Below, one piece after another: positions 8,552 to 60,520 of a DNA stretch of 64,000 bases. A program made the position numbers and the translations under genes. Position 1 is the first letter of the stretch. The number at the start of each line of letters is the position of its first letter. The notes under the pieces were generated by a model. The model was not told where the DNA came from. It searched no databases and saw only the letters and a program-made list of their open reading frames with translations. This stretch comes from Candidatus Paceibacter sp. GTDB taxonomy: Bacteria; Patescibacteriota; Minisyncoccia; UBA9983. The stretch lies in NCBI GenBank assembly GCA_013360865.1, contig JABWAS010000003.1, forward strand, positions 681 through 64,680, in the 5' to 3' direction.

Positions 8552-8624
8552 TCGGGGTGGCAGGACTTGAACCTGCGACCTCCGCATTGTGGGCGGCGCG
8601 CTTCCTAAGCTGCGCTACACCCCG
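8552..8624 (-). tRNA. tRNA, 73 nt, isotype unresolved (non-canonical anticodon arm)
   Basis: Canonical acceptor stem (CGGGGTG/CACCCCG plus A73), D-arm GCGC-AGCTTAGGAA-GCGC, and T-arm GCAGG-TTCAAGT-CCTGC. The only reasonable anticodon hairpin is CCGC-CCACAAT-GCGG, which has no U33 and reads ACA, or CAC if the loop is shifted. Confidence 0.55.
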
Positions 8625-8629
8625 GAGAA

Positions 8630-8815
8630 CTAAGCTCTAGTGTCCAGATCAGGGTTAATGTCATCAACCATAATCCAGTGTCCGGCATAACCTTTCCTGT
8701 ACCCTTTTTTAACCATCATTTTGTCTAAATCATCTTGGGTGCAGTTCCAGGTCGGACAAATCAGCGATGCAAAAATATTAACAAAAAAGCTTAAAATTTT
8801 TTCAATAAACTTCAT
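8630..8815 (-). CDS. Small hypothetical protein (61 aa) with hydrophobic N-terminus and CPTWNC motif
   Basis: Strong SD AAGGAGA 7 nt upstream of the ATG, and a TTGACT-N16-TACTAT promoter-like sequence upstream. It lies between tRNA genes. Confidence 0.35.
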   Translation of the reverse strand: MKFIEKILSFFVNIFASLICPTWNCTQDDLDKMMVKKGYRKGYAGHWIMVDDINPDLDTRA

Positions 8816-8909
8816 TTTATTCTCCTTATAAAAGTTTAGGAAAAATAAATGTCAAAAAACGATACGTTACATATAGTATCATTTTTGGTTAAAAAGTCAA
8901 ATTGGCTAC

Positions 8910-9007
8910 GCGGGTAAGGAGAATCGATCACAAATAATTTGCTTCGCAAATTTTCGCGACCCCACCTCGTTCCGCAAAGCGGAACTCCGGCCTTCGATTC
9001 TCTTACC
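8910..9007. repeat. tRNA-Gly 3'-end-derived inverted repeats (GCGGGTAAGGAGAATCGA … TCGATTCTCTTACC) enclosing ~65 nt of small hairpins, downstream of tRNA-Gly
   Basis: 8910-8927 repeats the first 18 nt of the tRNA-Gly gene's plus-strand footprint (9059-9076). 8994-9007 is its near reverse complement. Confidence 0.6.
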
Positions 9008-9057
9008 TGGCTATAAAAATATATTCGCAAACGCTTCGCGTTTTCTCATTATTTTTA

Positions 9058-9128
9058 TGCGGGTAAGGAGAATCGAACTCCTGTCTCATCCTTGGCAAGG
9101 ACGTGTTCTACCACTAAACCATACCCGC
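9058..9128 (-). tRNA. tRNA-Gly (GCC)
   Basis: GCGGGTA acceptor, anticodon stem-loop CGTCC-TTGCCAA-GGATG, T-loop TTCGATT, A73; CCA not encoded. Confidence 0.85.
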
Positions 9129-9211
9129 CTTCGCTACGCTTCGGCGGGCAGGCCCGCTTTGGCGCAGTTGCAATAAAATAAATTATATACGAATACTACA
9201 AAAAATAAAGG

Positions 9212-9294
9212 TGCTGGGGAGAGGACTTGAACCTCCACGGGGTTTCCCCCACCAGCTTCTAAGGCTGGCGTGTCTGCCATTCCACCACCCCAGC
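9212..9294 (-). tRNA. tRNA-Leu (TAG), type II with long variable arm
   Basis: Acceptor GCTGGGG, anticodon stem-loop CCAGC-CTTAGAA-GCTGG, variable arm TGGGGGAAACCCCGT, T-loop TTCAAGT. Confidence 0.85.
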
Positions 9295-9306
9295 AAATAA
9301 ATATTA

Positions 9307-9379
9307 TGCCCTGTGAGGGATTCGAACCCCCGACCATCTCCTTAAGAGGGAGTTGCTCTACCAACTGAGCTAACAGGGC
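9307..9379 (-). tRNA. tRNA-Lys (CTT)
   Basis: Acceptor GCCCTGT, D-arm GCTCAGTTGGTAGAGC, anticodon loop CTCTTAA, T-loop TTCGAAT. Confidence 0.8.
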
Positions 9380-9427
9380 AAAATCCGCTATTAGAATAGC
9401 GGATTTTGGTTTTTAATCAAGTAAAAT

Positions 9428-10387
9428 TTATTGCAGCTTCGCCGCTTTCCTCGGCGGGAACCTGTCCAGATCTATGGTGCGGGGAAAACAAGATCTGCCT
9501 TCCTCGTGAATCCAGTTTTGGTTTATACCCAGGCCATCAACGGCAATAGGTATTCTCTTTGGTCCGTTAATATTCTCGTCTTTGTTGGAAGTTTTAAATT
9601 CGGCGCAAAGTTCAAATGACAAATTGCCCGTCGTTCGGTACTCATAGGGCAGACCGGTTTCCGGATCATTGGGCGGGATAAAGCCAGTGATGTCGTTTTT
9701 CAACTCGTCCAGATTTTGGGGCAATCTTCCTTTCGTCTGCCAGTAATCAACAACCTGCCATTGGATATTGGAGAGGTCGTCTACCCTCCTTTGGTCAAAC
9801 TGCCTTAATCTCTCCGATTGGGGCAAGCCCACGGTGTAAAAACCGAAGATGACGGCGATGCCACCCAACGCGACCATTGTCCTGATAAGCGCCTTCATTT
9901 TGGGATTGGACGAAGGCGCGGTCTCTTTTCTCAAAATCCAGCCGTAATAAAAGAAGGCGGCGATGGCGATAACCAACACAGTCATAATTTTCAGAAGGAA
10001 GGGCATTGTCAGACTGCCGTTTAAAAATTGATAAACTACCGTGACGAAGTCGCCGGCCATGGTTATTATCGCCACAAAAAGAGTGAAGTACAGCAGCCAC
10101 TTTCTGATTTTAAGAGTCTTTTTTTCCGGATTAGCGGCAAGGTCTTTCTGGATAAATGACGATATCCATACGTAGAAAGGGAAAGCGATGGCCAGAACCG
10201 AAAGCGGCCACCTTAAGTTAGCCCTTATCCCTCCGGCGGTAATATGTCTCAACGGGTCGGGAAAATAAAAATCAACAAAGTTGAATACGACTATGCTGAA
10301 GAATACGACGCAGACGTAAAACGATATGATAGCCAAAAGGTTCAAGAACACGTCCTTCGGCCCTGTTTTTTTGATTTCTTCGTTCAT
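9428..10387 (-). CDS. Hypothetical polytopic membrane protein with a GspG/pseudopilin-like C-terminal periplasmic domain
   Basis: The likely true start is MNEEIKK at 10385-10387, because the longer ORF would overlap tRNA-Leu. Several TM helices, then …LPQNLDEL…DPETGLPYEYRT…. Confidence 0.55.
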   Translation of the reverse strand: MNEEIKKTGPKDVFLNLLAIISFYVCVVFFSIVVFNFVDFYFPDPLRHITAGGIRANLRWPLSVLAIAFPFYVWISSFIQKDLAANPEKKTLKIRKWLLYFTLFVAIITMAGDFVTVVYQFLNGSLTMPFLLKIMTVLVIAIAAFFYYGWILRKETAPSSNPKMKALIRTMVALGGIAVIFGFYTVGLPQSERLRQFDQRRVDDLSNIQWQVVDYWQTKGRLPQNLDELKNDITGFIPPNDPETGLPYEYRTTGNLSFELCAEFKTSNKDENINGPKRIPIAVDGLGINQNWIHEEGRSCFPRTIDLDRFPPRKAAKLQ

Positions 10388-10430
10388 AAAAATGATTATA
10401 GCATAATTTATAAAGTTCGTTCCGAACAAT

Positions 10431-10511
10431 TGCCGGTGGTGGGACTCGAACCCACATCCCTTTCGGGACACGATTTTAAGTCGTGCGTGTATACCATTCC
10501 ACCACACCGGC
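10431..10511 (-). tRNA. tRNA-Leu (TAA), type II
   Basis: Acceptor GCCGGTG, anticodon stem-loop CACGA-CTTAAAA-TCGTG, long variable arm, T-loop TTCGAGT. Confidence 0.85.
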
Positions 10512-10517
10512 ATCCAA

Positions 10518-10589
10518 AGGCGCGGGCGGGAATCGAACCCGCGTATGGCGGTTTTGCAGACCGCAGCGTTACCACTTCGCCACCGCGCC
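10518..10589 (-). tRNA. tRNA-Cys (GCA)
   Basis: Acceptor GGCGCGG, anticodon stem-loop GCGGT-CTGCAAA-ACCGC, T-loop TTCGATT, discriminator U73 (Cys identity). Confidence 0.85.
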
Positions 10590-12501: not shown

Positions 12502-12539
12502 TGGTTTAATTTTACTCAAAGTTAACAAAAGAAACTAGC

Positions 12540-12622
12540 ATCGTTTGCGACGCCTTTCGCAGCGCGACGGCGCGAGAAGAGCAAATTTTCAGCAGAAAAT
12601 TATGCGAGCCGAGCAAATGATG
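12540..12622. repeat. 83-bp element with 9-bp terminal inverted repeats, copy 1 (identical to 42515-42597), inserted in the centre of the eno terminator palindrome
   Basis: Exact 83/83 identity with copy 2. The ends ATCGTTTGC…GCAAATGAT are inverted. The flanks gaaactagc/gctagtttc form a split palindrome. Confidence 0.85.
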
Positions 12623-14044
<1,422 letters not shown>

Positions 14045-16319: not shown

Positions 16320-16790
16320 TTATTCTAAATCTATCCCCCCGCCCTTACTGCTCGCGTTTCCTCCCTGCAAAACGCTGTCATAAAGATACGGCACGTCCGG
16401 CGGGCTGTCGTCCAAGTCAAAAGTATTTACCAAAATATTAACTATCCCCCAGAAGCTTATCATTACGAACAGGCCAATGACGCCGAACGTCATCATTTTG
16501 CCCGCCTCTTTCCTTTTATCCTCGTCGCCGCCGGAAGTGATGTATTTTAAAATGCCGATAAGAAAATAAACGACGGCCAGGGCGACAATCAAAACAACGA
16601 CAATATCCAAAATGTCCAAAATTATGTAAAGCAAATCCCACAAACCTCCGCCGCCTCCTCTTCCGGTGTATCTTGTGCTTACATCAACGTCGTAATCTAT
16701 GAGGTTGTCCTGCGCCAAAGCAAAAACGGGCAGGAAGTAAACGACTACGGCTAATAATTTTTTAAGATAATTTTTTATTATTCTCCTCAT
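16320..16790 (-). CDS. Small secreted 2-TM protein, VirB2/TrbC-pilin-like, paralog 5 (156 aa)
   Basis: Signal peptide ending …VFALA-QD, then two hydrophobic helices separated by SGGDEDKRKEAG, with the conserved FGVIGLFVMISFWGIVNIL motif. Confidence 0.5.
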   Translation of the reverse strand: MRRIIKNYLKKLLAVVVYFLPVFALAQDNLIDYDVDVSTRYTGRGGGGGLWDLLYIILDILDIVVVLIVALAVVYFLIGILKYITSGGDEDKRKEAGKMMTFGVIGLFVMISFWGIVNILVNTFDLDDSPPDVPYLYDSVLQGGNASSKGGGIDLE

Positions 16791-16797
16791 AATACGG

Positions 16798-16844
16798 CAT
16801 CAAGGTTCCTACTTGATAGTTGCTATAAAGGAGGAACCTTGATG
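16798..16844. promoter_or_regulatory. Palindromic element CATCAAGGTTCCT…AGGAACCTTGATG, 10 nt upstream of the paralog-5 start
   Basis: 13-bp perfect inverted arms, related to the element at 17531-17577. Confidence 0.5.
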
Positions 16845-16866
16845 CAACCAGACATTCAGCCCAATC

Positions 16867-17130
16867 TTAATAAATTGATTCAATGTCCCACCAGAAATCA
16901 GACAAAATATTGATTATGCCGTAAGCGGAAATCATCACGAACATCCCGATCACTCCGTATATCATATGTCTCTTGCCCTTGCTTCTTACGTCCTCGTTTT
17001 CCGCGCCAAGAATATACTCTGTTATGCCGTAAATGAACATAACCGTAGCCACGGCAAACATAAAGCCGATTATCGGGTTTAGGATAAGGTGCTTTACGTT
17101 GTTTATCAGCTTTACGGTTTCAGCGCTCAT
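16867..17130 (-). CDS. Small 2-TM protein, VirB2/TrbC-pilin-like, paralog 4 (87 aa)
   Basis: Two hydrophobic helices separated by AENEDVRSKGKRH; conserved YGVIGMFVMISAYGIINIL. Confidence 0.45.
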   Translation of the reverse strand: MSAETVKLINNVKHLILNPIIGFMFAVATVMFIYGITEYILGAENEDVRSKGKRHMIYGVIGMFVMISAYGIINILSDFWWDIESIY

Positions 17131-17131
17131 T

Positions 17132-17476
17132 TTATATCTGTGGCAGAACGTCTATATCCGGCAAGTCGTTGTCCAGATTAAAAGTTCCTTCCAGAATATT
17201 GACCAATCCCCAGACACTGACCATCACGAACAAGCCGATGATGGCGTAGATGATGAGATTGTGGTAATTCTTCCTCTTTTCTTCGTCTTCTCCGGCTCTT
17301 ATGTAACCGATAATAGCTATCAACAAGATAATGACGGCGATAGCGATTATCAAAGGAACGATTTTGTTCAATATGTCGCCGGTAAGATCAATAAGATCGT
17401 CTAAGCTGGAAACGGCTCCGGCCGCCAAAGGAAGACCGAGCAGTCCGAAAGTTAAAACCTTTTTAACTAAATTCAT
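17132..17476 (-). CDS. Small secreted 2-TM protein, VirB2/TrbC-pilin-like, paralog 3 (114 aa)
   Basis: Signal peptide …LAAGA, loop AGEDEEKRKNY, conserved YAIIGLFVMVSVWGLVNIL. Confidence 0.5.
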   Translation of the reverse strand: MNLVKKVLTFGLLGLPLAAGAVSSLDDLIDLTGDILNKIVPLIIAIAVIILLIAIIGYIRAGEDEEKRKNYHNLIIYAIIGLFVMVSVWGLVNILEGTFNLDNDLPDIDVLPQI

Positions 17477-17494
17477 AAATTAATTTTTAAATAT

Positions 17495-17510
17495 TTTTGG
17501 TCGACCAAAA
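17495..17510. promoter_or_regulatory. 16-bp perfect palindrome TTTTGGTCGACCAAAA in the paralog-3 promoter region
   Basis: It lies between the big palindrome (17531-17577) and the start codon (17476). Confidence 0.4.
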
Positions 17511-17530
17511 TTTTCTAATAATAATTCTGA

Positions 17531-17577
17531 CATCAAGGTTTCTCCTTGATAGCTGCTATCAAGGAGAAACCTTGATG
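17531..17577. promoter_or_regulatory. 47-bp perfect palindrome CATCAAGGTTTCTCCTTGATAGC t GCTATCAAGGAGAAACCTTGATG upstream of paralog 3
   Basis: 23-bp arms with a nested inner palindrome CCTTGATAGCTGCTATCAAGG. Confidence 0.55.
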
Positions 17578-17617
17578 TTCTATAATAATAAACCATTATT
17601 TCAAAAACAGCTACAGT

Positions 17618-17995
17618 TCAAAGCGCCTTGACTGTGGATTGCAAAACTTCCGTTATGACCCAGGCTCCCACCAGTATACCTGTTCCTATTATCGCCCAAA
17701 GCAGACCTTTTTTGGCGTCGGTTAAGGCTTTCTCGTCGCCTCTGGCCATTACCATTCTTAATCCGGAATAAATTATAAACACTACCGCTATGGGTATGCC
17801 TATTTCTATGGCCAAAGTGGAGATTGTTTTAACTAAGTCGCTGAAAGAACTGGAAGTCAGCGGGTTGCAAAGAACGCTTGTTTCCGAACCGGAGTAGAAC
17901 TCGCAATCCGAGGAATTTTGGGCGCGGGCGGACAGAAAAAAATTAAAATAATTGAATGTCGCCGCTACGATTATGAATATTTTCTTTTTTAGCAT
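17618..17995 (-). CDS. Small secreted 2-TM protein, VirB2/TrbC-pilin-like, paralog 2 (125 aa)
   Basis: Signal peptide …LSARA-QN, a Cys pair in the mature N-terminus, loop ARGDEKALTDAKKG, second TM LLWAIIGTGILVGAWVITEVL. Confidence 0.45.
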   Translation of the reverse strand: MLKKKIFIIVAATFNYFNFFLSARAQNSSDCEFYSGSETSVLCNPLTSSSFSDLVKTISTLAIEIGIPIAVVFIIYSGLRMVMARGDEKALTDAKKGLLWAIIGTGILVGAWVITEVLQSTVKAL

Positions 17996-18025
17996 ATAAA
18001 GTTTGTTTTTAAATGTAATTTAGCT

Positions 18026-18451
18026 TTAATCGTCGCCTTCGCAACCGGGGAAGGCGTACCACGATTCGGAAAAATCTTTGTCCGCCAGAGCCCCCAAAAC
18101 AGTGTTTACCATAACCCACGCCGCGAAGGTTATAAAAAGACCGACCACGGCGGCCCAAACAGCGTTGGTGCCGGATGACTTTTTCTTCTCGTTGCCCCCG
18201 GAAGTTATAAGCATTATGCCACCATAAATAAGAATTATCGCGCCCAGCGGAGCGGCGATGGTGAACGCGGCGAAATTAACCACGTTGGAAACAAGTTCAA
18301 ATATGTCGCAGATCTTGCAATCAAGGCCGTCGCAGGGAATAATGTCCGATTTTTCCTGGGCGAAAGCGGGAACGCTTAAAAAGAGATTGGCCGCCATAAA
18401 AACCGTTCCGATTATCGCCGCTTTTAAAATTTTTGTTTTCCTTTTTATCAT
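18026..18451 (-). CDS. Small secreted 2-TM protein, VirB2/TrbC-pilin-like, paralog 1 (141 aa)
   Basis: Signal peptide …PAFA-QE, CDGLDCKIC, loop TSGGNEKKKSSG, second TM AVWAAVVGLFITFAAWVMVNTVL. Confidence 0.45.
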   Translation of the reverse strand: MIKRKTKILKAAIIGTVFMAANLFLSVPAFAQEKSDIIPCDGLDCKICDIFELVSNVVNFAAFTIAAPLGAIILIYGGIMLITSGGNEKKKSSGTNAVWAAVVGLFITFAAWVMVNTVLGALADKDFSESWYAFPGCEGDD

Positions 18452-20421: not shown

Positions 20422-22872
20422 TTATAAGCATGTCATTGACGCGATGCTGTCGTCCGGCTTCATCCTCATTATTCTAACACCTTGCGTCTGCCTGCCCAGC
20501 ACCGGCACTTCCGCCAGCGAAGTCCTGATGACCTGCCCTTTCTGGGAAATGGCAATCATCTCTTCCACTTCGGGGCCGACGATTCTTGCCACCATCAATG
20601 GTCCGGTTTTGGGCGTCACCTTAAAGGTCTTGATGCCCGAGCCGCCCCTTTTCTGCAGCCGGTAATTTTTTATGCCGGTTTTTTTGCCGTAGCCGTTTTG
20701 CCCCATCGTCAAAAGATACTGGTCTTTCTTGCCGTCCGTGGCCACGTCGGCTCCGACAAGCTCGTCTTTTTCCGCCAGCTTGATGCCCCGCACGCCTCCG
20801 GCGGCCCGCCCCATTGCCCGGATATCGGATTCCTTAAACATTATAGACTGACCAAGTTTCGTGGCCAGAATCACATAATCGTTTTTGGAAACAAAATGGG
20901 TGAACTTCAGCTCGTCGTCTTTCTCCAACCGGATGGCGATGATGCCGTTGCGCCTCACGTCCTTGAAGCTTGAAGCGTCCACTTTTTTGACCGTGCCGTT
21001 TTTGGTGGCCATCACCAGGAAGTTCTGGGCTTCTTTGGCCGATTTGGGCGCCACCAAAACCGAGGTGACTTTTTCCTCGCCGGAAAGAGCCAGAAAGTTC
21101 ATAATTGATTTGCCTTTGGTGGCGCGCTTGCCTTCCGATAGTTCGTACATTTTTATCTGGTACACCTTGCCTTTGTCGGTGAAGAAAAGCAGGTCGTCAT
21201 GGGTGTTTGCGGTGACAAAAATATTCACAAAATCTTCTTCTTTTGTTTCAATATCGGCCACCCCCATGCCGCCTCTCTTTTGGGCGCGGTAAGCCTCTGG
21301 GTCCGTCCTTTTTACATAGCCGCCCTTGGTCAGCGTCATCACCTGGTCTTTTGATTCCACAAGATCTTCCTCCGACATCACTTTGGCGGCGCGGGACATG
21401 ACTTTCGTCCTTCTTTCGTCGGCGTATTTGTTTCTCACTTCCGTAAGCTCATCTCTGATGACCTTCATTATTTTCTTCGGGTCGGCCAAAAGAGAGCGCA
21501 AGTCTTTGATGAGTTTTTGCTTCTCCTTCAGCTCGTCTTCAATTTTCTGCCGCTCCAGATTGGCCAATGACTGCAGCTTCATCTCCAGAATGGCGTTGGC
21601 TTGTTTGTCGGAAAATTTGAACTTGGCCATCAACTGCTTCTGGGCGTCGTCCCTGTCTTTGGATGCCCGGATGGTTTTGATTATCGCGTCAATGTGGTCC
21701 AGCGCTTTCTTCAAACCTTCCAATATATGAGCGCGGTCCAACGCCCGGTTGAGGTCATACTGCGTTCTGCGGCGCACCACTACTTCGCGGTGATTAACGA
21801 AGTGCTGCAAAATTTCCTTCAAACGCAATACCTGCGGCTGGAGACCGTCCACCAAAGCGATCATGTTGAAGTGGAAAGTCTTTTCCAAATCGGTGTGTTT
21901 GTACAGATTGTTTAAAACATTCTGCGGATTGATGCCTGTTTTCAGGTCAATGACTATTCGCACTTTTTCTTCCCTGTCGGATTCGTCGCGGATGTCTCTT
22001 ATGCCTTCTATTTTTTTGTCCCGCACCAGGTCGGCCATCTTCATTATCATTTCCGATTTGTTAACCTGATACGGAATGGATGAGATTATTATCTGGAAAC
22101 CGCTTCTGTCCGACTCCACTATCTCCGCTTCGCCCCGGGTGACCACGCCGCCGCGGCCGGTGGCGTAAGCCTGCTGGATGTCTTTGGCGTTGAATATCAG
22201 ACCGCCGGTCGGAAAATCCGGCCCTTTGACGAATTGCATCAGGTCGTCCAAAGAAGCTTCCGGATTGTCTATAAGATGGTTAGTGGCGTCTATAACTTCC
22301 CCGAGGTTGTGCGGCGGGATACTGGTCGCCATACCCACGGCGATGCCGAAAGAGCCGTTAATTATAAGTTGAGGAACGGCGGCCGGAAGAACTGACGGCT
22401 CCATCAATCGGTTGTCGTAATTAGGCTTGAAGTCCACCGTTTCTTTTTGGATGTCTTCAAGCATCTGGCCGGCCACGGAAGTCATTCTGGCTTCGGTGTA
22501 CCTCATGGCCGCTGGCGAGTCGCCGTCTATGGAACCCCAGTTGCCCTGGCCGTCCACCAGCGGGTATCTCATCAAAAAGTCCTGGGCCATTCTGGCCATG
22601 GCGTCGTAAACGGGAATGTCGCCGTGGGGATGATATTTACCGAGCGTGTCGCCGACGATGGCCGCCGACTTCAAAAATTTAGCCGAGTGGCTCAAGCCGG
22701 CCTGATGCATGGTGTAAAGAATTTTCCGGTGCACCGGTTTGAGTCCGTCGCGTACGTCCGGCAAGGCGCGGGACACGATGACGGAAACGGCGTAGTCTAT
22801 GAAAGACTCCCGCATTTCCTGCGAGATGTCTCTTTTTACGACTCTTGTTTCTTTATTATTGTTGTTCTCCAT
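20422..22872 (-). CDS. gyrA: DNA gyrase subunit A
   Basis: …[29 protein letters not shown]…, the active-site region with the catalytic Tyr, and the C-terminal beta-pinwheel repeats. Confidence 0.9.
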
Positions 22873-23224
22873 TTATTTCTTCTTCTGCCGTCGCTTCTGT
22901 TTCCGTTATTTCCGCCTCGTTTGTTTCCGCTTCATCCAAACTTCCTGCCATATCGCTTAAACCGCCAGCCATTTGCGCCACCCCATCCTCAACCATCTCT
23001 TTAAATACGGCAAACGGCGACGATACGGCGGTTTCTTTTTTCAGGCTTTCTCCCGTCGTCAGCCTCAATGTGGAAACCCAGGCGGCTACTATAATAAACA
23101 TAATAACAAAAAGGCTGACAAAAACTATCCGCCGTTTTACATGGTCGGGCTTTTTCTGCATATTTTCTATTTTATCAATTAAAGACATCTCTTTAATAAA
23201 TCCGAATATCGAAATTCGAAACAA
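22856..23224 (-). CDS. Hypothetical single-TM protein with acidic C-terminus
   Basis: ORF with a TM helix [17 protein letters not shown]; overlaps the gyrA start by 17 nt. Confidence 0.35.
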
Positions 23225-23326
23225 TATCTAAATTCAAATATTTAAATCCTAAAAGTTTTGAATTTTGATTTTCCATCATTTTGAATTTGTTTCGAATTTC
23301 GTGCTTCGTGTTTCGTGTTTTAATTT

Positions 23327-27827: not shown

Positions 27828-27858
27828 AGCCCCGCCAGAGGTCGGGGCTTTGTTTTTT
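27828..27858 (+). terminator. Rho-independent terminator (AGCCCCG…CGGGGCT plus T-run)
   Basis: 7-bp GC stem followed by TTTGTTTTTT. Confidence 0.65.
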
Positions 27859-27894
27859 CATTTTAAAAGTCCCCTTTTGCTGTATAATAATTGG

Positions 27895-28440
27895 ATGGCG
27901 CTGATACAAAATATTGACCTCTGGGCGGCCGGTTACGCCGAATCAATACGGAGCGTTTTTTTGACTTCGTTTTTCAAGACTGTCACTTACTTAGGCGAGT
28001 GGTCTATTGTTCTGGCGGTAGCCATAATCGTCGCTTTAGTTTTGATTACCAAAGGGAAAAAGGTTTATGCCCTCACTCTGGCCTTGATAACATTTTTAAG
28101 TATCGGCTCCGTCTTTATTTTAAAATACGCTATTCAACGCCCACGGCCAATTGACGGCATTATTGACGAAACTTCATTTTCTTTCCCCAGTCTTCATGCC
28201 GTTCTTTCCGTAGCTTTTTATGGTCTGATAATTTATTTTTTGTGGGAAAGATTTAAAAGCCCGCGGTTCCGCTTTTTTAAAATATTATTCGGCCTTGTTT
28301 TGGTGTTGTTTATCGGCTTCAGCCGCGTTTATCTTGGCGTGCATTATTTGAGCGACGTGCTGGGCGGTTATCTTTTGGGGCTGTTCTGGCTGACGGCCGG
28401 AATTTACGCTTCTTTTAAAAGTGGCAAGGCGAGACCTTGA
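27895..28440 (+). CDS. PAP2-family phosphatase (undecaprenyl-diphosphatase-like)
   Basis: KYAIQRPRP, SFPSLHAV, SRVYLGVHYLSDV; the start is moved to the first ATG after the terminator. Confidence 0.7.
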   Translation: MALIQNIDLWAAGYAESIRSVFLTSFFKTVTYLGEWSIVLAVAIIVALVLITKGKKVYALTLALITFLSIGSVFILKYAIQRPRPIDGIIDETSFSFPSLHAVLSVAFYGLIIYFLWERFKSPRFRFFKILFGLVLVLFIGFSRVYLGVHYLSDVLGGYLLGLFWLTAGIYASFKSGKARP

Positions 28441-28471
28441 CATAAGTCATGTCAAGGTCTCGCCTTGCCAC
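28421..28471. repeat. 51-bp palindrome GTGGCAAGGCGAGACCTTGACAT aagtc ATGTCAAGGTCTCGCCTTGCCAC overlapping the PAP2 stop
   Basis: 23-bp perfect arms; it shares the GCGAGAC/GTCTCGC core with 44161-44204 and 51961-52007. Confidence 0.8.
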
Positions 28472-28492
28472 TTGCCAAAACCATAATCAACC

Positions 28493-30668: not shown

Positions 30669-30718
30669 AAAATCAAGGTTAAACCTTGAGATGCTTTTTA
30701 AGGTTTAACCTTGATTTT
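30669..30718 (+). terminator. Inverted repeat AAAATCAAGGTTAAACCT…AGGTTTAACCTTGATTTT plus T-run downstream of recG
   Basis: 18-bp arms, an A-run before and a T6 run after, so it may act in both directions. Confidence 0.55.
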
Positions 30719-31197: not shown

Positions 31198-31273
31198 TGG
31201 TGCGCGCACTAGGACTCGAACCTAGGACCACCAAGGTATAAGCTTGGCGCTCTACCAACTGAGCTATGCGCGC
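31198..31273 (-). tRNA. tRNA-Ile with anticodon TAT (UAU); CCA encoded
   Basis: Acceptor GCGCGCA/TGCGCGC, D-arm GCTCAGTTGGTAGAGC, anticodon stem-loop CCAAG-CTTATAC-CTTGG, T-loop TTCGAGT, A73 plus CCA. Confidence 0.75.
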
Positions 31274-33258: not shown

Positions 33259-33714
33259 ATGTCCGCGCTTTTGGAAAACAAGAAGGCTTATTTTGACTAT
33301 GAAATTATGGAAAAATTCCAGGCCGGTTTGGAGCTGCTTGGCTGGGAAGTTAAATCTTTAAGGAATAAACAAGGTTCGCTGGCCGGCTCCCGGGTGATAA
33401 TCCGGGGCGGCGAAGCGTTTTTAGTGGGAGCAAGCGTTTCTCCTTATCAGCCTAAAAACATCGCCAGCGGTTCCGCCAAAGCGGGAGAAGAAAACAGGAC
33501 AATAAAACTTCTGCTGACAAAAAAAGAGCTGAACTATCTGGCGGGCAAGGCGGAAGAAAAAGGGCTGACGCTCATCCCTCTTAAAATTTTTACTCTGGGC
33601 AAAAAATTGAAGCTGGAGCTCGCCCTCGTCCGCGGCAAGAAAAAATTTGAAAAACGGGAAAAAATCAAAAAAAGAGAAACGGAAAGAAATGTTAGGAGAT
33701 TGATGAAAGAGTAA
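33259..33714 (+). CDS. smpB: SsrA-binding protein
   Basis: …NKKAYFDYEI…, the KLLLTKKEL…KGLTLIPLK… pattern, and a basic C-terminal tail. Confidence 0.85.
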   Translation: MSALLENKKAYFDYEIMEKFQAGLELLGWEVKSLRNKQGSLAGSRVIIRGGEAFLVGASVSPYQPKNIASGSAKAGEENRTIKLLLTKKELNYLAGKAEEKGLTLIPLKIFTLGKKLKLELALVRGKKKFEKREKIKKRETERNVRRLMKE

Positions 33715-33723
33715 ATTGTTTCT

Positions 33724-34050
33724 TCAATTAAAAAGATCTTGTTTTATAAACGGTTTTAGGTCTGATTTAACGAGAATTCTTTGAGTGTCAGTTTTCTTAA
33801 TTAAAGACAATAATGGGGTTGTAGAATTATCTAGATTATTATCGTCTGTAATGGAAAAACCAACATATTCAATTTTCTCTTTATTTCTGTGGCGGACCCA
33901 GTCAATCGCTGGTATCAAATCCGAATCAGAACTAACAATAACAGCAGTATCGTATTGATTATCAACTGCTCCTACTATTAAGTCAGTAGCTAATTTAACG
34001 TCTATTCCCTTTTCTCGCAATCTCTCGAATTCGATTTTCTTAACACCCAT
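33724..34050 (-). CDS. NYN/LabA-like nuclease domain protein, apparently N-terminally truncated or using a non-ATG start
   Basis: …GIDVKLATDLIVGAVDNQYDTAVIVSSDSDLIPAI… is the NYN core. The in-frame upstream sequence …SPIIDNRVVDYKKLLS continues the domain but has no ATG, and a stop lies at 34147-34149. The region is AT-rich. Confidence 0.5.
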   Translation of the reverse strand: MGVKKIEFERLREKGIDVKLATDLIVGAVDNQYDTAVIVSSDSDLIPAIDWVRHRNKEKIEYVGFSITDDNNLDNSTTPLLSLIKKTDTQRILVKSDLKPFIKQDLFN

Positions 34051-34448
34051 ACTTAAAAGTTTTTTATAATCGACAACTCTGTTATCAATAATAGGACTTA
34101 CGCACTTTGGCAGAATTAAGCAAAATCCATGTGCTGAATAATGATTTTAAGCCATTAGTTGCTAAGTTTTTGCTAAAAAGTGCATTTTGCGTAAGTCCTA
34201 ATAATAATTACTTTTTGTCAGACGTCAAGATAATAAAAATTTACCTGTGAAAATGCAAATCTATTGACTATAAAAAAATAAACTATAAGCTAACGGTGGG
34301 GTTTGAGAAAGATTTGGAGCCAATCGGGCAACTCACCTTGCGGATAACAAAATGAGTCTAGTAACACTTCATTTATGGGGTTAAATTACCAGGGTTATAG
34401 AGAGGTCAAGTTAAAGATTGCTTGTGACTTATCTTCTGATCTACCCTA

Positions 34449-34484
34449 GCCCGACAATATTTATTGTCGGGCTATTTTATTTAT
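34449..34484 (+). terminator. Rho-independent terminator (AGCCCGACAATA…TATTGTCGGGCT plus T-run)
   Basis: 12-bp stem followed by ATTTTATTT. Confidence 0.6.
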
Positions 34485-34497
34485 AATATCAAAAAAT

Positions 34498-34527
34498 TTG
34501 ACAATCAGTCTTATTTTATAGTATTAT
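34498..34527 (+). promoter_or_regulatory. Sigma70 promoter (TTGACA-N18-TATTAT) for ssrA
   Basis: Consensus hexamers sit ~10 nt upstream of the GGGG 5' end of tmRNA. Confidence 0.65.
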
Positions 34528-34536
34528 GTTTTCGTA

Positions 34537-34886
34537 GGGGATGATCGGCCTGGACAAAGAGTACGTTTAAATCACGCAAGCCGAGTGTTCTAAAAACTCG
34601 TAAAACTTTCAGAAATCTAATTAAGCGTCAAAAACTTATTTAGCCAACCGGCGTTAGCTTACGCTTAACCCGGCGTTCCCCCGGCCCACTTCCGATAAGC
34701 CGGACGGAATGTCATTTATCGGGATAGGAAAATTTCCGCCTCAAAAATTTTCCGAAAAATTAGAGGCTCTGGATTCGGAGATTTTGATTGTTTAATACCC
34801 CGTTTCCGAAACGAACAAACAACCTAAGCTTGTAGAACTGATTTAAAACAGCTTTTTGCACGGCGGTTCGATTCCGCCCATCTCCA
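34537..34886 (+). ncRNA. ssrA: tmRNA (transfer-messenger RNA)
   Basis: The 5' end GGGGATGATCGGCCTGGAC pairs with the 3' CATCTCC-A. The T-arm is GGCGG-TTCGATT-CCGCC. It is ~350 nt and adjacent to smpB. A candidate tag frame ends …QPALAYA followed by TAA. Confidence 0.7.
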
Positions 34887-34996
34887 TAAATAAAATGCTC
34901 CAGCTTGCCTAGGGCCATTTTTATTTATGAGCACGATGAAACGGAATCGAACGGACTGACTAAATGTCAGTCCGCGGAATTTTCCATAAGAAAATT

Positions 34997-41815: not shown

Positions 41816-42493
41816 ATGGCGACTTACAAAACCAAGCTCATCAAAAAAGAGGAAGTGGCGGAGGGAACGATGTCTTTTTATTTTGAAAAGCCGGAGAAGT
41901 TCAAGTTTATCGCCGGGCAGTATCTGGAATTCAGCCATATCAAACCGGCGGAGACGGACAGCGAGGGCAACAACCGCTTTTTCTCCATCGCCAGCGCGCC
42001 GTATGAAAACAATATAATGATAGCCACCCGCATGAGAGACACGGCGTTTAAGCGGGTGCTCAAAAATCTGCCCATTGGTTCGGAAATAATAATAAACGGT
42101 CCGCACGGATTTTTTTACCTCCATAAAGACGCCTCCCGACCGGCCGTTTTCCTCATTGGCGGCATTGGCATCACGCCGGTTTCCAGTATTCTAAAAAACG
42201 CCGTCAAGGAAAGACTGCCCCATAAATTGTTTTTGTTTTACTCCAACAAGCGGCCGGAGGACACGGCTTTTCTTAGAGAATTACAAAATCTGGAAAAAGA
42301 AAATCCAGCCTTTAAACTTGTCGCCACCATGACAGATCTGGAAAAGTCGGCGCAAAAATGGCAGGGAGAAACCGGATTTATAAACGTGGAAATGATAAGA
42401 AAATATGTAGGCGATTTAAATTTGATGAAACTTCTGGAAGAAAACGGGGTTAAGAAAAAAGATATGGTGTCGGAAGAATTTGCGGGATACTAG
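41816..42493 (+). CDS. FNR-like FAD/NAD(P)-binding oxidoreductase
   Basis: RFFSIAS FAD-binding motif and the GGIGITP NAD-binding motif. Confidence 0.65.
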   Translation: MATYKTKLIKKEEVAEGTMSFYFEKPEKFKFIAGQYLEFSHIKPAETDSEGNNRFFSIASAPYENNIMIATRMRDTAFKRVLKNLPIGSEIIINGPHGFFYLHKDASRPAVFLIGGIGITPVSSILKNAVKERLPHKLFLFYSNKRPEDTAFLRELQNLEKENPAFKLVATMTDLEKSAQKWQGETGFINVEMIRKYVGDLNLMKLLEENGVKKKDMVSEEFAGY

Positions 42494-42514
42494 CTCATGT
42501 CGCGGGGAATTAAT

Positions 42515-42597
42515 ATCGTTTGCGACGCCTTTCGCAGCGCGACGGCGCGAGAAGAGCAAATTTTCAGCAGAAAATTATGCGAGCCGAGCAAATGATG
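42515..42597. repeat. 83-bp element with terminal inverted repeats, copy 2 (identical to 12540-12622), inserted in the centre of a terminator palindrome
   Basis: The flanks GTCGCGGGGAATTAA / TTAATTCCTCGCGAC form a split hairpin, followed by T6. Confidence 0.85.
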
Positions 42598-42669
42598 TTA
42601 ATTCCTCGCGACAAGTTTTTTGCGCTTTTGTTCGCTTTTACTTTTATTAAAACTTAGTATAATAAACAT

Positions 42670-42921
42670 ATGTTCGACAAACTAAAACAACTCAATGAAT
42701 TGCGGAAAATGAAGAACGCCATCCAGGCGGAGACGGTCACGGCTGAGAGAAACGGGGTTAAAATAACAATAAACGGCAGCTTCAACGTGGAAGACCTTTC
42801 CGTTTCACCGGAGGCCAAACAAGGCTCCGGACTGGAGAAAGATTTGCGCGCCTGCTTCAACGACGCGGTGGGCAAAATCCAAGCAACATTGGCGCAGAAA
42901 TTTTCCTCAATGATGCAGTAG
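42670..42921 (+). CDS. YbaB/EbfC-family nucleoid-associated protein
   Basis: …QLNELRKMKNAIQAETVTAERNGVKITINGSFNVEDLSV… fits the YbaB fold pattern. Confidence 0.6.
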   Translation: MFDKLKQLNELRKMKNAIQAETVTAERNGVKITINGSFNVEDLSVSPEAKQGSGLEKDLRACFNDAVGKIQATLAQKFSSMMQ

Positions 42922-43061
42922 CGCCAAGCCAATAAGAAAAAAACAAATGTTCTACCTGCTAATATATTCCCTGCTTCAGACGATAGGATTCTTCATTTTA
43001 GTCGTGGCGGCCATCGCCTTGCTGACGATAATATTGCTTTCCGTTTCCCGCCGGTTATATT

Positions 43062-44150
43062 GTGGTGCTTGTCGGGGTTTTCCTCCTGTTCTTCTCCACG
43101 CAAGAAGCGCCCCGCCAGCTTAAATTTCCCCTGATGCTTAAAACTTTCGGCCCGGCCGGCGGCCCCGAGTTGCCGATTAAAAGCGTCTTTACCTTTCTTA
43201 AAAATATAAATAATTTTGAGCGGGTGGATATCGCCCGCGACCCGGCCGACATCCCGCCGCCGATAAACAGAAAAGAACCAACGGAAGTCAAAGTGGAAAT
43301 TGAAACCAAAGAAGTCATCGCAGAAATAGCGCCGGGAGTGTATTTCAATTACTGGACTTTCGGCGGGCAGGTGCCCGGGCCGTTTGTCCGCGTCCGCGAA
43401 GGCGACACCGTGGCTTTGACTTTAAAGAACAACCCCTCCAGCCTTCATCACCACAGCATCGACCTGCACGCCGTCAACGGGCCGGGCGGCGGAGCAACGG
43501 TCACTATGGTCGCCCCGGGCGAATCTAAAACGTTCAGATTCAAAGCGCTGAATCCCGGACTTTACGTTTACCACTGCGCTTACCCCAACGTCGGCACCCA
43601 CATGGCGCACGGAATGTATGGGATGATTTTGGTGGAACCGAAAGAAGGCTTGCCTCCGGTGGACAAGGAATTCTACGTAATGCAGGGCGAGTTTTACAGC
43701 GCCGGACGGCTCGGTAAAAAAGGATTGCAGGTTTTTGACGCCGGAAAGATGGTGGACAACCATCCGGAATACATAGTTTTTAACGGCAAAACGAAATCAA
43801 TCAACGGCAACATCAAAGCCAACGTCGGCGAGAAAATAAGATTTTTTGTCGGCAACGGCGGCGTCAACCTCATCTCCTCTTTTCATTTAATCGGCGAAAT
43901 TTTTGATAAAGTTTATCCGGAAGGAGCCGTCGGTTCAGAACCGTTCGCCAACGTGCAGACTACGGCCGTTCCCGCCGGAGGCGCAACTATTGCCGAGTTC
44001 AAACTTGATTATCCGGGCAAATACATCCTGGTTGACCACGCTTTGGCCAGATTGGACAAAGGCGCCTGGGGCGTGATGGAAGCGTCGGGCGAAGCAAACA
44101 AAGAAATTTTTGACGGGGAAATGGGCAACCTTGAAGAAAGCGGGCATTAA
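43062..44150 (+). CDS. nirK: Copper-containing nitrite reductase; the N-terminus is uncertain (GTG start or frameshift)
   Basis: DPADIPPPI…, the type-2 Cu site HHHSIDLHA, and the type-1 Cu site YVYHCAYPNVGTHMAHGMYGM (Cys, His, Met ligands). Confidence 0.8.
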   Translation: MVLVGVFLLFFSTQEAPRQLKFPLMLKTFGPAGGPELPIKSVFTFLKNINNFERVDIARDPADIPPPINRKEPTEVKVEIETKEVIAEIAPGVYFNYWTFGGQVPGPFVRVREGDTVALTLKNNPSSLHHHSIDLHAVNGPGGGATVTMVAPGESKTFRFKALNPGLYVYHCAYPNVGTHMAHGMYGMILVEPKEGLPPVDKEFYVMQGEFYSAGRLGKKGLQVFDAGKMVDNHPEYIVFNGKTKSINGNIKANVGEKIRFFVGNGGVNLISSFHLIGEIFDKVYPEGAVGSEPFANVQTTAVPAGGATIAEFKLDYPGKYILVDHALARLDKGAWGVMEASGEANKEIFDGEMGNLEESGH

Positions 44151-44160
44151 ACTTGGAAGA

Positions 44161-44204
44161 AACTTGGAAGCGAGACTTCCGATTGGAAGTCTCGCTTCCA
44201 AGTT
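44161..44204. repeat. Palindrome AACTTGGAAGCGAGACTTCC gatt GGAAGTCTCGCTTCCAAGTT immediately after the nirK stop
   Basis: 20-bp arms with the GCGAGAC/GTCTCGC core. Confidence 0.75.
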
Positions 44205-44216
44205 TAAATCTCGTAA

Positions 44217-44254
44217 ATAAAACCCAGCCACGAATATGGCTGGGTTTTATTTTG
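44217..44254. terminator. Bidirectional rho-independent terminator (AACCCAGCC…GGCTGGGTT, A-run before and T-run after)
   Basis: It lies between the convergent nirK and RRM-protein genes. Confidence 0.7.
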
Positions 44255-44260
44255 AGGAGA

Positions 44261-44584
44261 TTAGTAAGCGTTGTCGGATCTGTATCCTCTGCCGCCTCTG
44301 TCGCCAAATGACCTTCTCGGTCTGGCGCTTCCCTCTTCCTTCGGCTTGGCGATGTTGACTATCAACGTTCTGCCGCCGAAATCCTTCTCGTTGAACAATT
44401 CAATGGCCTTGTTGGCCTCTTCGGCCGTAGCCATTTCCACGAATCCGAATCCTCTTGACCTGTTGGTCATTTTGTCCATTATAACGCTGGCGGAAACGAC
44501 GTTTCCGGCTCCGGCGAAATAATCTTTGAGTTCCTGGTCGGTGGTCGCGTAAGGAAGGCCTCCCACGTACAATTTAGTACTCAC
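44261..44584 (-). CDS. RRM-domain RNA-binding protein with a Gly/Arg-rich tail
   Basis: RNP-2 KLYVGGL and RNP-1 RGFGFVEM. Confidence 0.8.
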   Translation of the reverse strand: MSTKLYVGGLPYATTDQELKDYFAGAGNVVSASVIMDKMTNRSRGFGFVEMATAEEANKAIELFNEKDFGGRTLIVNIAKPKEEGSARPRRSFGDRGGRGYRSDNAY

Positions 44585-49221: not shown

Positions 49222-50382
49222 TTAAACTTTCTTATACTCTTTCTCCACTTTTTCCAACGCCGATTTTTTGCCAGAGTTTATGGCTTCTCTGATTTTGGCA
49301 AACAAAGTTTTGTAGAAATATATGTTGTGCAAGGTGGCTAGGCGTTGGGCTTCGGGTTTGTTTTCCTTGAACAGCCGGTTTAAGTCTTTGCGCTTTATGC
49401 CTCCGGCGCACATTTGGCAAAGGCAACTTCTTTCTATAACTTTTTTATCTTTGGCAAACACGCCTCTTTTAATATCAAGCCGGCCATCGCGACTGAAGAC
49501 GCAGCCATGCCGCGCTTCACGGGTAGGTATGACGCAATCAAAAGTGTCTATGCCGTTTTTGACGCCGATAAAAATATCTTTTACCCGGCCAATACCCAGA
49601 AGATGTCTCGGCCTGTCTTCCGGCAATCCGCTTAAAGACCATCCTATAACCTTGCCCATCTGCTTTTCGCCGAAGGAGCCGCCGATACCGAAACCGTCAA
49701 AAGGCAATGAGCCGATGGCTTTGGAACTTTCCTTTCTTAAATCTTCAAAAACGCCGCCCTGCACTATGCCAAACAAGAGTTGCTCTTTGCCTCTTTTGAC
49801 CTTGAGACATTTTTTAGCCCAGTCATGAGTCCTTTTTAGCGCCCTTTTATTGTATTCGTAATCGTGCAAAGGAGAGGTGCACTCGTCAAAAGCGAAAATT
49901 ATGTCGGCGCCGATGTCTTTTTGCAGCGAGATTGATTTGGCCGGAGTCAGCTCGTATTTTTTGCCGTCGTAATTGAAAACAACGCCATTATTTGTAATCC
50001 TAACGGGATTTTTAGTACTATTGACGTTCGATGTCGATAGTGAATTTTCTGAATTTACTTTGCCGATTTTGTGGACTTTCCCCCAGCCGAGGCTGAATAC
50101 CTGGAAGCCGCCGCTGTCGGTCATAATCGGATTCTTCGCGCCGAACATTTTACGCAATCCTCCGGCTTTTTTTATCTCCTTCCATTTGCCGGTGACAAAA
50201 AGATGAAAAGTGTTGGATATGGTCAGCTCCGGCGAAGCGGCCAGATAATCTTTTTTATCCAAGGCTTTTATCACGCCGTGAGTGGCCACGAAAGCGAAGT
50301 TGGGAGTTTCTATATCACCGTGAGCGGTTTTTATTACACCAGTCCTAACTCTCCCTATTTTGTTTTTTATGGAAAAAGACAC
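49222..50382 (-). CDS. tgt: Queuine tRNA-ribosyltransferase (tRNA-guanine transglycosylase)
   Basis: …TPNFAFVATHGVIKAL…, MTDSGGFQVFSL, and the zinc site CLCQMCAGG…H. Confidence 0.8.
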   Translation of the reverse strand: MSFSIKNKIGRVRTGVIKTAHGDIETPNFAFVATHGVIKALDKKDYLAASPELTISNTFHLFVTGKWKEIKKAGGLRKMFGAKNPIMTDSGGFQVFSLGWGKVHKIGKVNSENSLSTSNVNSTKNPVRITNNGVVFNYDGKKYELTPAKSISLQKDIGADIIFAFDECTSPLHDYEYNKRALKRTHDWAKKCLKVKRGKEQLLFGIVQGGVFEDLRKESSKAIGSLPFDGFGIGGSFGEKQMGKVIGWSLSGLPEDRPRHLLGIGRVKDIFIGVKNGIDTFDCVIPTREARHGCVFSRDGRLDIKRGVFAKDKKVIERSCLCQMCAGGIKRKDLNRLFKENKPEAQRLATLHNIYFYKTLFAKIREAINSGKKSALEKVEKEYKKV

Positions 50383-60103: not shown

Positions 60104-60465
60104 TAATTATTTTTTAATTATTTAAAATTTATAATTTTATTAATTTTAAAAACAAAAATATTTTGAAATAAACGCGAAATCGCTGAAGAAAAACCCGTCT
60201 GGGCGCTTGCCCCGTACCACGCCTCTAAGGCTGTGGTTTTTGCTTCATGCTTGTAATTTCAAAGCGTTCACCCCACTTTCGCCGGCGTGCTTTTCGCGTG
60301 GTATGGGGTAAAAGGCAAAAAAATAACAAAAATCCTCAAATTCGGATCCTTTGATAAAAATTTATTGTATTGCCTTAATAATATACTTTATTTTTTATCT
60401 GTCAACTCCACACATTCTTAAAAATTTCAACCTGTGGATAAGTAACCCAAAAAACCGACATCCGA

Positions 60466-60520
60466 TGTCTGAGAATTTTTGACATCGGATGTCGGTTTTA
60501 ATCCCGTCTGTTGTTGGTTG
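60466..60520. promoter_or_regulatory. Doubled palindrome CCGACATCCGATGTC…GACATCGGATGTCGG, flanked by an A-run and a T-run, in the rpoB/GT2 divergent region
   Basis: 15-bp inverted arms, each arm itself palindromic (GACATCSGATGTC). Confidence 0.45.

Follow-up and report, generated by a model that had tools for sequence, protein, structure and literature searches.

The stretch of DNA considered here (the window: 64,000 nucleotides of Candidatus Paceibacter sp., Patescibacteriota; assembly GCA_013360865.1, contig JABWAS010000003.1, positions 681 to 64,680) carries a set of long, mostly perfect palindromes, between and within genes, each built from two inverted copies of a smaller palindrome. Three of them had been picked out in an initial annotation made from the sequence alone, and they lie where it placed them, each reaching slightly further than noted. 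Palindrome C (28419-28473, AAGTGG-CAAGG-CGAGA-CCTTG-ACAT aagtc ATGT-CAAGG-TCTCG-CCTTG-CCACTT), with perfect 25-nt arms and a 5-nt loop, covers the stop codon of a PAP2-family gene (27850-28440, plus strand), whose last seven codons and stop lie inside it, the TGA within CCTTGA; it ends 20 nt 5' of the recG start, and its DNA folds with -32.7 kcal/mol (z -14.4). Palindrome E (44160-44205, AAACTT-GGAAG-CGAGA-CTTCC gatt GGAAG-TCTCG-CTTCC-AAGTTT), with perfect 21-nt arms and a 4-nt loop, starts 9-10 nt past the stop codon (TAA, 44148-44150) of a nirK-like multicopper oxidase gene (43062-44150, plus strand), and not 1 nt after it as first described; the separate, true terminator said to follow is indeed there (44215-44252), a canonical bidirectional intrinsic one with A-run, GC hairpin and T-run that does not belong to the family. 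Palindrome F (51961-52007, perfect 23-nt arms, 1-nt loop) lies inside a real dnaG gene, encoding DNA primase (51559-53244, minus strand; Pfam Zn_ribbon_DnaG, DNAG_N, Toprim and DnaB_bind), in the linker after the DnaB-binding region; it is translated in frame, and in either orientation just one of its three frames is open. The window DnaG is 100% identical to a protein of a Ca. Paceibacterota metagenome-assembled genome (MAG). None of the three palindromes has a T-run, and GGTCTC/GAGACC occurs in two of them, C and F. They are far beyond chance expectation: nine perfect hairpins in the window have arms of 15 nt or more, against none in 30 dinucleotide-preserving shuffles.

In these three palindromes each arm is itself a small palindrome, CAAGG-CGAGA-CCTTG in C and F and GGAAG-CGAGA-CTTCC in E, where the centre is the same and the stem is altered on both sides. 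The 18-mer CAAGGCGAGACCTTGACA is common to C and F, at two unrelated loci of the window, and the stem of E, ACTTGGAAG/CTTCCAAGT, is a word in the dnaG-linker palindromes of two relatives, L123 and L212 (L-numbers denote loci and P-numbers DnaG homologues; taxon labels are those of the records). A tandem AACTTGGAAG preceding E repeats part of its arm and is not a flank duplication. The heptamer GCGAGAC, proposed at the outset as the shared, defining core, does not fill that place: it is not enriched (nine found against 5.2 expected), six of its nine occurrences in the window fall in these palindromes, and it is one among dozens of interchangeable centres. As an uptake or recognition word it was rejected for the same lack of enrichment in the window.

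Furthermore, the window contains seven such elements and not three. Palindrome B (17530-17578, ACATCAAGG-TTTCT-CCTTGATAGC t GCTATCAAGG-AGAAA-CCTTGATGT; perfect 24-nt arms, 7-bp inner stem, z -12.4) lies 40 nt downstream of a T4SS-pilin gene, and palindrome A (16797-16845), a decaying paralogue of B whose 23-nt arms hold two transversion mismatches, adjoins another T4SS-pilin gene. Palindrome D (30669-30718, AAAATCAAGG-TTAAA-CCTT ... AAGG-TTTAA-CCTTGATTTT; perfect 19-nt arms, 12-nt loop) is terminator-like, with A4/T4 flanks, and is found between recG and tRNA/ftsH. Palindrome G (60451-60499, AAAACCGACATCCGATGTC ... GACATCGGATGTCGGTTTT; GACATC family, perfect 19-nt arms) occupies the spacer between the divergent rpoB and glycosyltransferase genes and is identical in four independent assemblies. 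In addition, a decayed simple palindrome (50019-50039; gene strand TATCGACAT cga ACGTCAATA) lies in tgt. About 10 kb of sequence beyond the window edges held no further member.

In the common element, a short hairpin unit (usually CAAGG-N3-5-CCTTG) is thus present twice, in inverted orientation, and the pair forms one long, usually perfect palindrome; whole elements measure 35-55 bp and encode 12-17 residues when translated. CAAGG-N5-CCTTG, allowing at most one mismatch, occurs 11 times in the window against 2.1 expected, and ten of the 11 matches are paired; the eleventh, unpaired and CAAGG-like, at 31232, is in a tRNA gene. Self-palindromic arms are present in six of the nine long perfect hairpins, compared with about 7.5% of random window 25-mers, and in single-strand folding each window element forms one long hairpin (z -9 to -14). 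By centre and stem, window subfamilies can be recognised with the centre CGAGA (three members), with TTTCT/TTCCT (two) and of the GACATC type. The density is about one element per 9 kb. Outside the elements, too, the window has a mild excess of CAAGG (125 against 91, z 3.5), and a search of Rfam gave no family at any element.

The arrangement was then followed in a scan of bacteria and archaea, one genome per species, for two CAAGG-N5-CCTTG units at most 30 nt apart, with no condition placed on the centres; at least 120 loci were obtained, and all scan counts given here and below hold among the matches listed. Centres are exact reverse complements in 77 of 141 matches, against about 1 in 1024 by chance, most of these 77 being long perfect palindromes. 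The inverted doublet is found in all seven window members and in 78 distinct scan elements. Of these 78, 56 have a centre whose two end bases pair with each other (25% expected), and in 63 the inner stem is prolonged outward through one or more covarying pairs, which gives inner stems of 6-10 bp with loops of 3-5 nt; the inner dyad is a real constraint, beyond a merely shared word. The spacer between the two units is mostly 2-19 nt. A Mini-III RNase site (ACCU/AGGU) was considered for the stems and rejected, as it is not enriched (39 of 78, 44% expected).

As regards taxonomy, 60 of the 120 loci belong to named Patescibacteria MAGs of many classes (Saccharibacteria, Paceibacterota, Nomura-, Kaiser-, Doudna-, Curtiss-, Gottesman-, Vogel- and Campbellbacteria). 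Named MAGs of this group, the candidate phyla radiation (CPR), contribute 47 true nested palindromes in 65 matches, with 28 different centre pairs, as against one in 33 for the remaining other named taxa. Single high-copy families using CAAGG, similar to REPINs (doublets of repetitive extragenic palindromic, or REP, units), were met in an Omnitrophota MAG, in a low-GC MAG labelled Gammaproteobacteria and in Amycolatopsis xylanica. A palindrome-blind control, 875 kb around metagenome DnaG genes of mixed taxa (again among the matches listed, and mostly distant relatives, at 31-54% identity), held 16 long perfect hairpins, none of them nested. The nested class is therefore spread over many Patescibacteria classes and found almost nowhere else, although taxon shares and stem-word frequencies are indicative only, since the scan selected on the CAAGG word. 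A phage origin was also considered and rejected, with only three matches in 2.9 million viral contigs.

The placement "at gene ends" that had been suggested for the family is true of only about half of the intergenic members, and about half of all members are intragenic. Forty of 84 nested palindromes fall inside long open reading frames (ORFs), and ten host ORFs taken from other classes all proved by Pfam to be conserved genes, verified hosts including BipA, a P-type ATPase, MurB and two class-V aminotransferases; two orthologous glycosyltransferases carry the same palindrome at the same relative position. The BipA of L050 has a perfect 48-nt palindrome in the linker that joins its GTPase domain to domain 2, with conserved anchors on either side, and is 12 residues longer there than two other BipA proteins, a clean net insertion. 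In-frame read-through is seen in the linkers of DnaG, BipA and Tgt. Among the intergenic members that follow a gene, 16 of 31 start 4-13 nt past its stop codon, and the sister loci L121, L212 and L213 have further members 8-10 nt past a stop.

Relatives do carry palindromes at the same positions as the window, the dnaG linker among them, and the case of only three copies, unrelated in relatives, is clearly excluded. L121, whose DnaG is 64% identical to that of the window, has a perfect palindrome at the same linker position, with the inner 37 nt identical and two paired changes in the outer arm. L123 (62%) has a different nested palindrome there, ACTTGGAAG-TTCGG-CTTCCAAGT in two inverted copies, the stem being that of palindrome E, and L122 keeps only the first unit, a half-decayed doublet. 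An exact dynamic program was used to ask of each protein whether any of its peptides is compatible with a perfect palindrome in the coding DNA: arms of 22 nt or more are possible in 32 of 120 DnaG homologues, against one of 120 shuffled proteins, and nearly all these peptides lie at relative position 0.73-0.75. At least five unrelated palindrome types occupy the linker, patchily on the DnaG tree, and DnaG genes that are 94-96% identical outside the linker carry different types. In the DNA of four more relatives, nested T2', T3 and T5 and a simple, decaying T4 were found between the same anchors; T2 (TTCGG/CCGAA) and T2' (TTTAG/CTAAA) are both perfect, so that the arms have changed in concert. 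Between L210 and L211, identity is 0.89 at four-fold sites outside the linker and 0.42 within it, which indicates that the cassette was replaced. Copies at a given permissive site are replaced much faster than the surrounding gene evolves. The nearest window relatives, P0007 and P0013, keep the KVKLEP anchor with a shorter linker and no palindrome. Separately, palindrome-compatible peptides with arms of 17-22 nt lie at 0.37-0.38 in P0057, P0060, P0091, P0098, P0112 and P0116, tentatively a second hotspot in a variable loop of the primase catalytic core, where arms of 16-19 nt are at noise level; a near-identical peptide, PTYDVG(E/G)TDIVSQ, lies at 0.37 in P0116 and at 0.85 in P0061.

Other sites behave in a similar way. 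A second conserved position lies 8-10 nt past the stop of a peptidoglycan (PG)-binding gene upstream of rpoB, and is filled by CAAGGACTACCCTT... in L121 and L212 but by CCCTCCTCGACATC g GATGTCGAGGAGGG in L213. CAAGGACTACCCTTGG occurs once in L121 and twice in L212. The sequence of palindrome G, AACCGACATC-C-GATGTCGGTT, recurs in L211 at the rpoD 5' end and inside tgt, and fits the dnaG linker of P0038 at the peptide level, KPTSDV...NRHPMS being two of its reading frames. Palindromes group at the 3' end of dnaG and the 5' end of rpoD, at 4491-4537 in L210 and at 3341-3387 in L211. Identical sequences of 17-37 nt are thus present at unrelated loci and in different genera, and several sequence families are shown to recur in this way among Patescibacteria. 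In-place growth from a simple to a doubled palindrome can be followed at one tgt position, decayed in the window, with 9-nt arms in L213, 14-nt arms in L212 and a doubled, nested form with 21-nt arms in L211; this series across four genomes indicates that simple palindromes lengthen and double where they stand. The syntenic nirK-RRM spacer of L212 has the canonical terminator alone, and palindrome E is therefore an extra that termination does not need. The nearest relatives with DNA are distant (DnaG 64% identical to that of the window), and for this reason a clean empty-site comparison for the window copies is given by E only. A further family of simple palindromes, ACTTGGACATT c AATGTCCAAGT, was also seen in different contexts in four sister genomes (L122 14694-14718, L123 16412-16438, L211 5211-5233 and L213 13698-13728); it combines the stem words CTTGG and GACAT of nested families.

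The question then arises of the level, DNA or RNA, at which the palindromes are maintained. Long non-terminator inverted repeats in these loci are perfect in 100 cases and imperfect in 32, and the sense-oriented mismatches comprise 11 G.T, 10 A.C and 18 transversions. Selection on an RNA helix would be expected to let G.U pass but not A.C. Since there is no G.U bias and both arms change together, the constraint appears to act on DNA, one arm being copied from the other. We lean, with moderate confidence, towards regarding the elements as interspersed nested-palindrome DNA repeats, REPIN-like and, inside genes, like the Rickettsia palindromic elements (RPEs), kept and spread by hairpin-templated DNA processes; they apparently behave as small mobile or self-renewing repeats and not as gene terminators. 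The proposed unit would have a stem of 5-10 bp, most often CAAGG...CCTTG, and a centre of 3-5 nt, and would be present twice in inverted orientation. When the region becomes single-stranded in replication or repair it would fold back, and intramolecular template switching, in which arm is copied from arm, would keep the arms identical, lengthen them and occasionally duplicate the unit in inverted form. Spread and exchange might come about by copying between loci that share stem words, or by a candidate hairpin-specific enzyme of the REP-associated tyrosine transposase (RAYT) or HUH type. Copies would persist where they do least harm, and any effect on the mRNA, such as a 3' hairpin by the stop codon, would be secondary.

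Several observations weigh against this proposal. No mobilising enzyme is in sight: the about 50 genes of the window are all housekeeping genes and include no Y1_Tnp, RAYT or other transposase or nuclease, and the called genes of the ~10-kb flank include no transposase. The BipA, dnaG, tgt and nirK sites show no target-site duplications. Passive template switching does not account for the preference for CAAGG/CCTTG across the phylum, which is a hint of a sequence-specific factor, with the reservation already made that the scan selected on that word, and gene context came from a simple, crude ORF caller. The placement of 16 of the 31 intergenic copies shortly past a stop codon could reflect a role at the RNA level. 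Moreover, L122 and L123 have reached saturation at four-fold sites (identity 0.39) and yet agree at 0.78 in the linker, so that a type can persist there or re-home, and the window and L121 share their 37 identical nt at 64% protein identity; such persistence of types beyond neutral saturation could also mean selection. Together with the preference for CAAGG/CCTTG, the repeated re-occupation of the same sites and the closeness of many copies to stop codons make a part for RNA structure or for a sequence-specific protein conceivable. In a more specific and rather unlikely version, a dedicated Patescibacteria system would write and replace nested-palindrome cassettes at fixed sites, such as the linkers of DnaG, BipA, Tgt and RpoD (palindrome homing), by means of a hairpin- or cruciform-specific enzyme acting on CWWGG-type stems, for instance a RAYT-like HUH nuclease or a structure-specific nuclease/ligase. 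If true, palindrome homing would both maintain the repeat population and continually rewrite short protein segments and 3' ends.

What may be selected is instead the RNA structure, a perfect hairpin of about 20-25 bp in the mRNA serving as a 3'-end stabiliser as near the stop codon as a terminating ribosome allows, or as an RNase III-type processing site that uncouples genes of one operon such as dnaG and rpoD. The post-stop placements, the 8-10 nt of L121, L212 and L213 included, a conserved position both within the dnaG linker and past the PG-binding gene upstream of rpoB, the clustering at the dnaG 3' end and rpoD 5' end in L210 and L211, arm lengths that group near two helical turns and a type T2 more conserved than four-fold sites are all consistent with it. 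We consider it possible but on the whole unlikely, given the mismatch counts above, arms that are Watson-Crick perfect and not merely paired, and centres and whole types that are freely exchanged between near-identical genes; besides, half of the members lie within ORFs of unrelated genes, others lie in divergent 5' spacers (palindrome G), a simple long hairpin has no role for a nested inner dyad, and Rfam has no match. Alternatively, along lines already suggested in the initial annotation, the elements might be binding or cleavage sites of a conserved, sequence-specific dimeric DNA-binding protein or nuclease that recognises CAAGG-N5-CCTTG, a 5-5-5 dyad with half-sites one helical turn apart, a geometry typical of helix-turn-helix dimers. 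A single stem word used over many Patescibacteria classes with dozens of centres, and the excess of CAAGG in the window outside the elements, also point that way. Such a protein would, nevertheless, not require the exact complementarity of centres and flanks that is seen (77 of 141), the two dyads may stand anywhere from 2 to 19 nt apart or further, the same architecture and sites are also taken by other stem words (GGAAG, CTTGGAAG, GACATC, TGGCGGTT), and coding linkers of unrelated genes are an odd place for an operator, all of which makes this explanation improbable.

Unusual terminators or attenuators that lack a T-run are a good deal less probable still. Many members are indeed situated at gene 3' ends, A4/T4 flanks are present in D and G and in several scan matches (for example L105, L117 and L056), and D and G may double as terminators. 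C, E and F, however, are without a T-run, and a separate canonical terminator comes after E and stands alone in the orthologous spacer of L212; about half of the members lie in ORFs of essential genes, where termination would be lethal, and the same genomes have plenty of canonical A/T-flanked terminators, distinct from these elements. Finally, perfect palindromes are known to arise as chimeric fold-backs in multiple-displacement amplification and in some assemblers, and an assembly or amplification artefact has to be weighed for that reason. It is effectively refuted, its probability being close to nil: four independent assemblies, made from different sequencing runs, agree exactly in palindrome G, the exact DnaG protein, palindrome peptide included, is found on 15 contigs, intragenic copies always preserve the frame, and many relatives, each assembled independently, have palindromes at the same sites.

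Among known systems, the closest are the REPINs, REP doublets that form hairpins and are mobilised by RAYT transposases (Bertels & Rainey 2011, PMC3116915; PMC5581495), the REP units having a conserved GTAG or CGTC tetranucleotide at one end (PMC3733652). The initial annotation had suggested a family of the REP or bacterial interspersed mosaic element kind, and the likeness is upheld in the architecture, in which two inverted small palindromic units with a short spacer yield a larger hairpin, in the presence of multiple copies and several families per genome, which outlive individual copies, and in doublets that are better preserved than singlets, L122 providing a half-decayed doublet. It fails in other respects: the GTAG/CGTC tag is absent from the unit ends of all seven window elements, and, while REPINs are extragenic, about half of the elements here (40 of 84 in long ORFs) are intragenic and translated. 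A RAYT (Y1 HUH transposase) gene, in REPIN systems usually flanked by the repeats, is encoded neither in the 64-kb window nor among the called genes of its ~10-kb flank, in a genome of roughly 1 Mb. Here, too, the arms are almost always perfect, the elements shorter (35-55 bp) and the centres hypervariable, with one 5-nt stem word across a whole phylum. The published RAYT survey does not mention CPR.

RPEs, about 100-150 bp long, belong to the Rickettsia lineage and encode a conserved peptide per family (PMC10969869). They share with the present elements the nature of palindromic repeats of several families in a reduced, host-dependent bacterium and the in-frame insertion into unrelated genes, housekeeping ones included, with the addition of a peptide; the elements described here differ in being perfect nested palindromes of 35-55 bp, encoding 12-17 residues, in Ca. 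Paceibacterota. To our knowledge, RPEs are not reported to re-occupy one site repeatedly with different types. The correction of quasipalindromes through template switching in the course of replication, a process familiar from E. coli genetics, would explain perfect arms, paired arm changes and the extension of arms into flanks, all of which are seen here; it is, however, a mutational process and not a family of elements, and leaves unexplained the identical 17-37 nt at unrelated loci and in different genera, as well as the preference for CAAGG. Miniature inverted-repeat transposable elements differ in having terminal repeats and target-site duplications, whereas here the whole element is the inverted repeat and no such duplication is present. 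Rho-independent terminators and paired uptake sequences resemble the elements as inverted repeats just past genes; most members, though, have no T-run, E coexists with a true terminator and F lies inside dnaG, and DNA uptake sequences and uptake signal sequences (DUS/USS) are unlike them, a DUS being a fixed 9-12-mer in strong excess throughout the genome, at about one per kb, as compared with about one element per 9 kb here, with units almost all paired. TIGR-Tas arrays (PMC12045711), in which units with box C/D-like motifs stand in tandem beside a Tas gene, were considered and rejected, as the elements are solitary and dispersed, and the window has neither a tandem array nor a Nop/Tas-like gene.

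Some further features of the window deserve mention. Three tandem T4SS-pilin (PF18895) paralogues lie at 16320-18451 (minus strand), palindromes A and B flanking the gap of about 830 nt between the first and the second; such paralogues are typical of this bacterial group. The nirK-like gene belongs to a neighbourhood (41816-44584) with a partner NAD-binding oxidoreductase gene and a convergent RRM-domain gene, conserved in L212. The rpoB gene (minus strand) is split at 58352-58392 into ORFs of 583 and 474 aa (58352-60103 and 56968-58392), since it is without 38 nt (ccgtcttcctcgcagatgacaagtcttcccacgtcgcg) found in four further assemblies of this species, among them GCA_023150695.1 (contig JAKLKK010000001.1, about 99.7% match to the window), where rpoB is a single gene of 1057 aa. 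Several Logan contigs match the window at 100%. Excision of a palindrome was rejected as the cause, the difference being a plain deletion between two CGCG direct repeats, and it is probably an assembly artefact or a minority variant. A second, unrelated repeat, with an 84-nt core that is 100% identical, occurs at 12530-12631 and 42498-42613; the copies sit between complementary arms that are specific to each locus, as if the core had been inserted in the middle of a local palindrome, and fold with a long closing stem (z about -5), with no match in Rfam and none in all 216 loci compared. An inverted repeat at 23198-23313, AT-rich and imperfect, with 36-nt arms that are 78% complementary and are made up of GAAAT/TCGAA-like words, lies upstream of gyrA (20422-22872, minus strand). 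The smpB gene (33259-33714), a truncated NYN-domain ORF and the tmRNA (34537-34889) are clustered at 33259-34889, an ordinary arrangement, and tRNA genes lie at 8552-10589 and 31201-31273.

Patescibacteria account for much of bacterial diversity; their genomes are tiny and are generally regarded as poor in repetitive or selfish DNA. A search of 8 million papers and preprints gave no description of such repeats in this group and no joint mention of REPIN or RAYT with Patescibacteria, the TIGR-Tas paper (PMC12045711) being the sole Patescibacteria paper found to mention palindromes, and the repeat class is apparently undescribed. The recent genetic tractability of Saccharibacteria (PMC10633639) makes the question experimentally testable. 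If the proposal is true, interspersed repeats present throughout the phylum have gone unnoticed, with such unusual traits as perfect nested palindromes, tolerance in essential genes and cassette replacement between near-identical strains. For annotation, it would follow that short palindrome-encoded linker peptides are not lineage-specific features of the proteins, and for strain typing that the dnaG linker is a hypervariable marker. The finding also bears on the survival of long perfect palindromes, and hence on genome stability, in these organisms, and would extend the biology of REPINs and RPEs to a new superphylum, possibly with a new mobilising enzyme.

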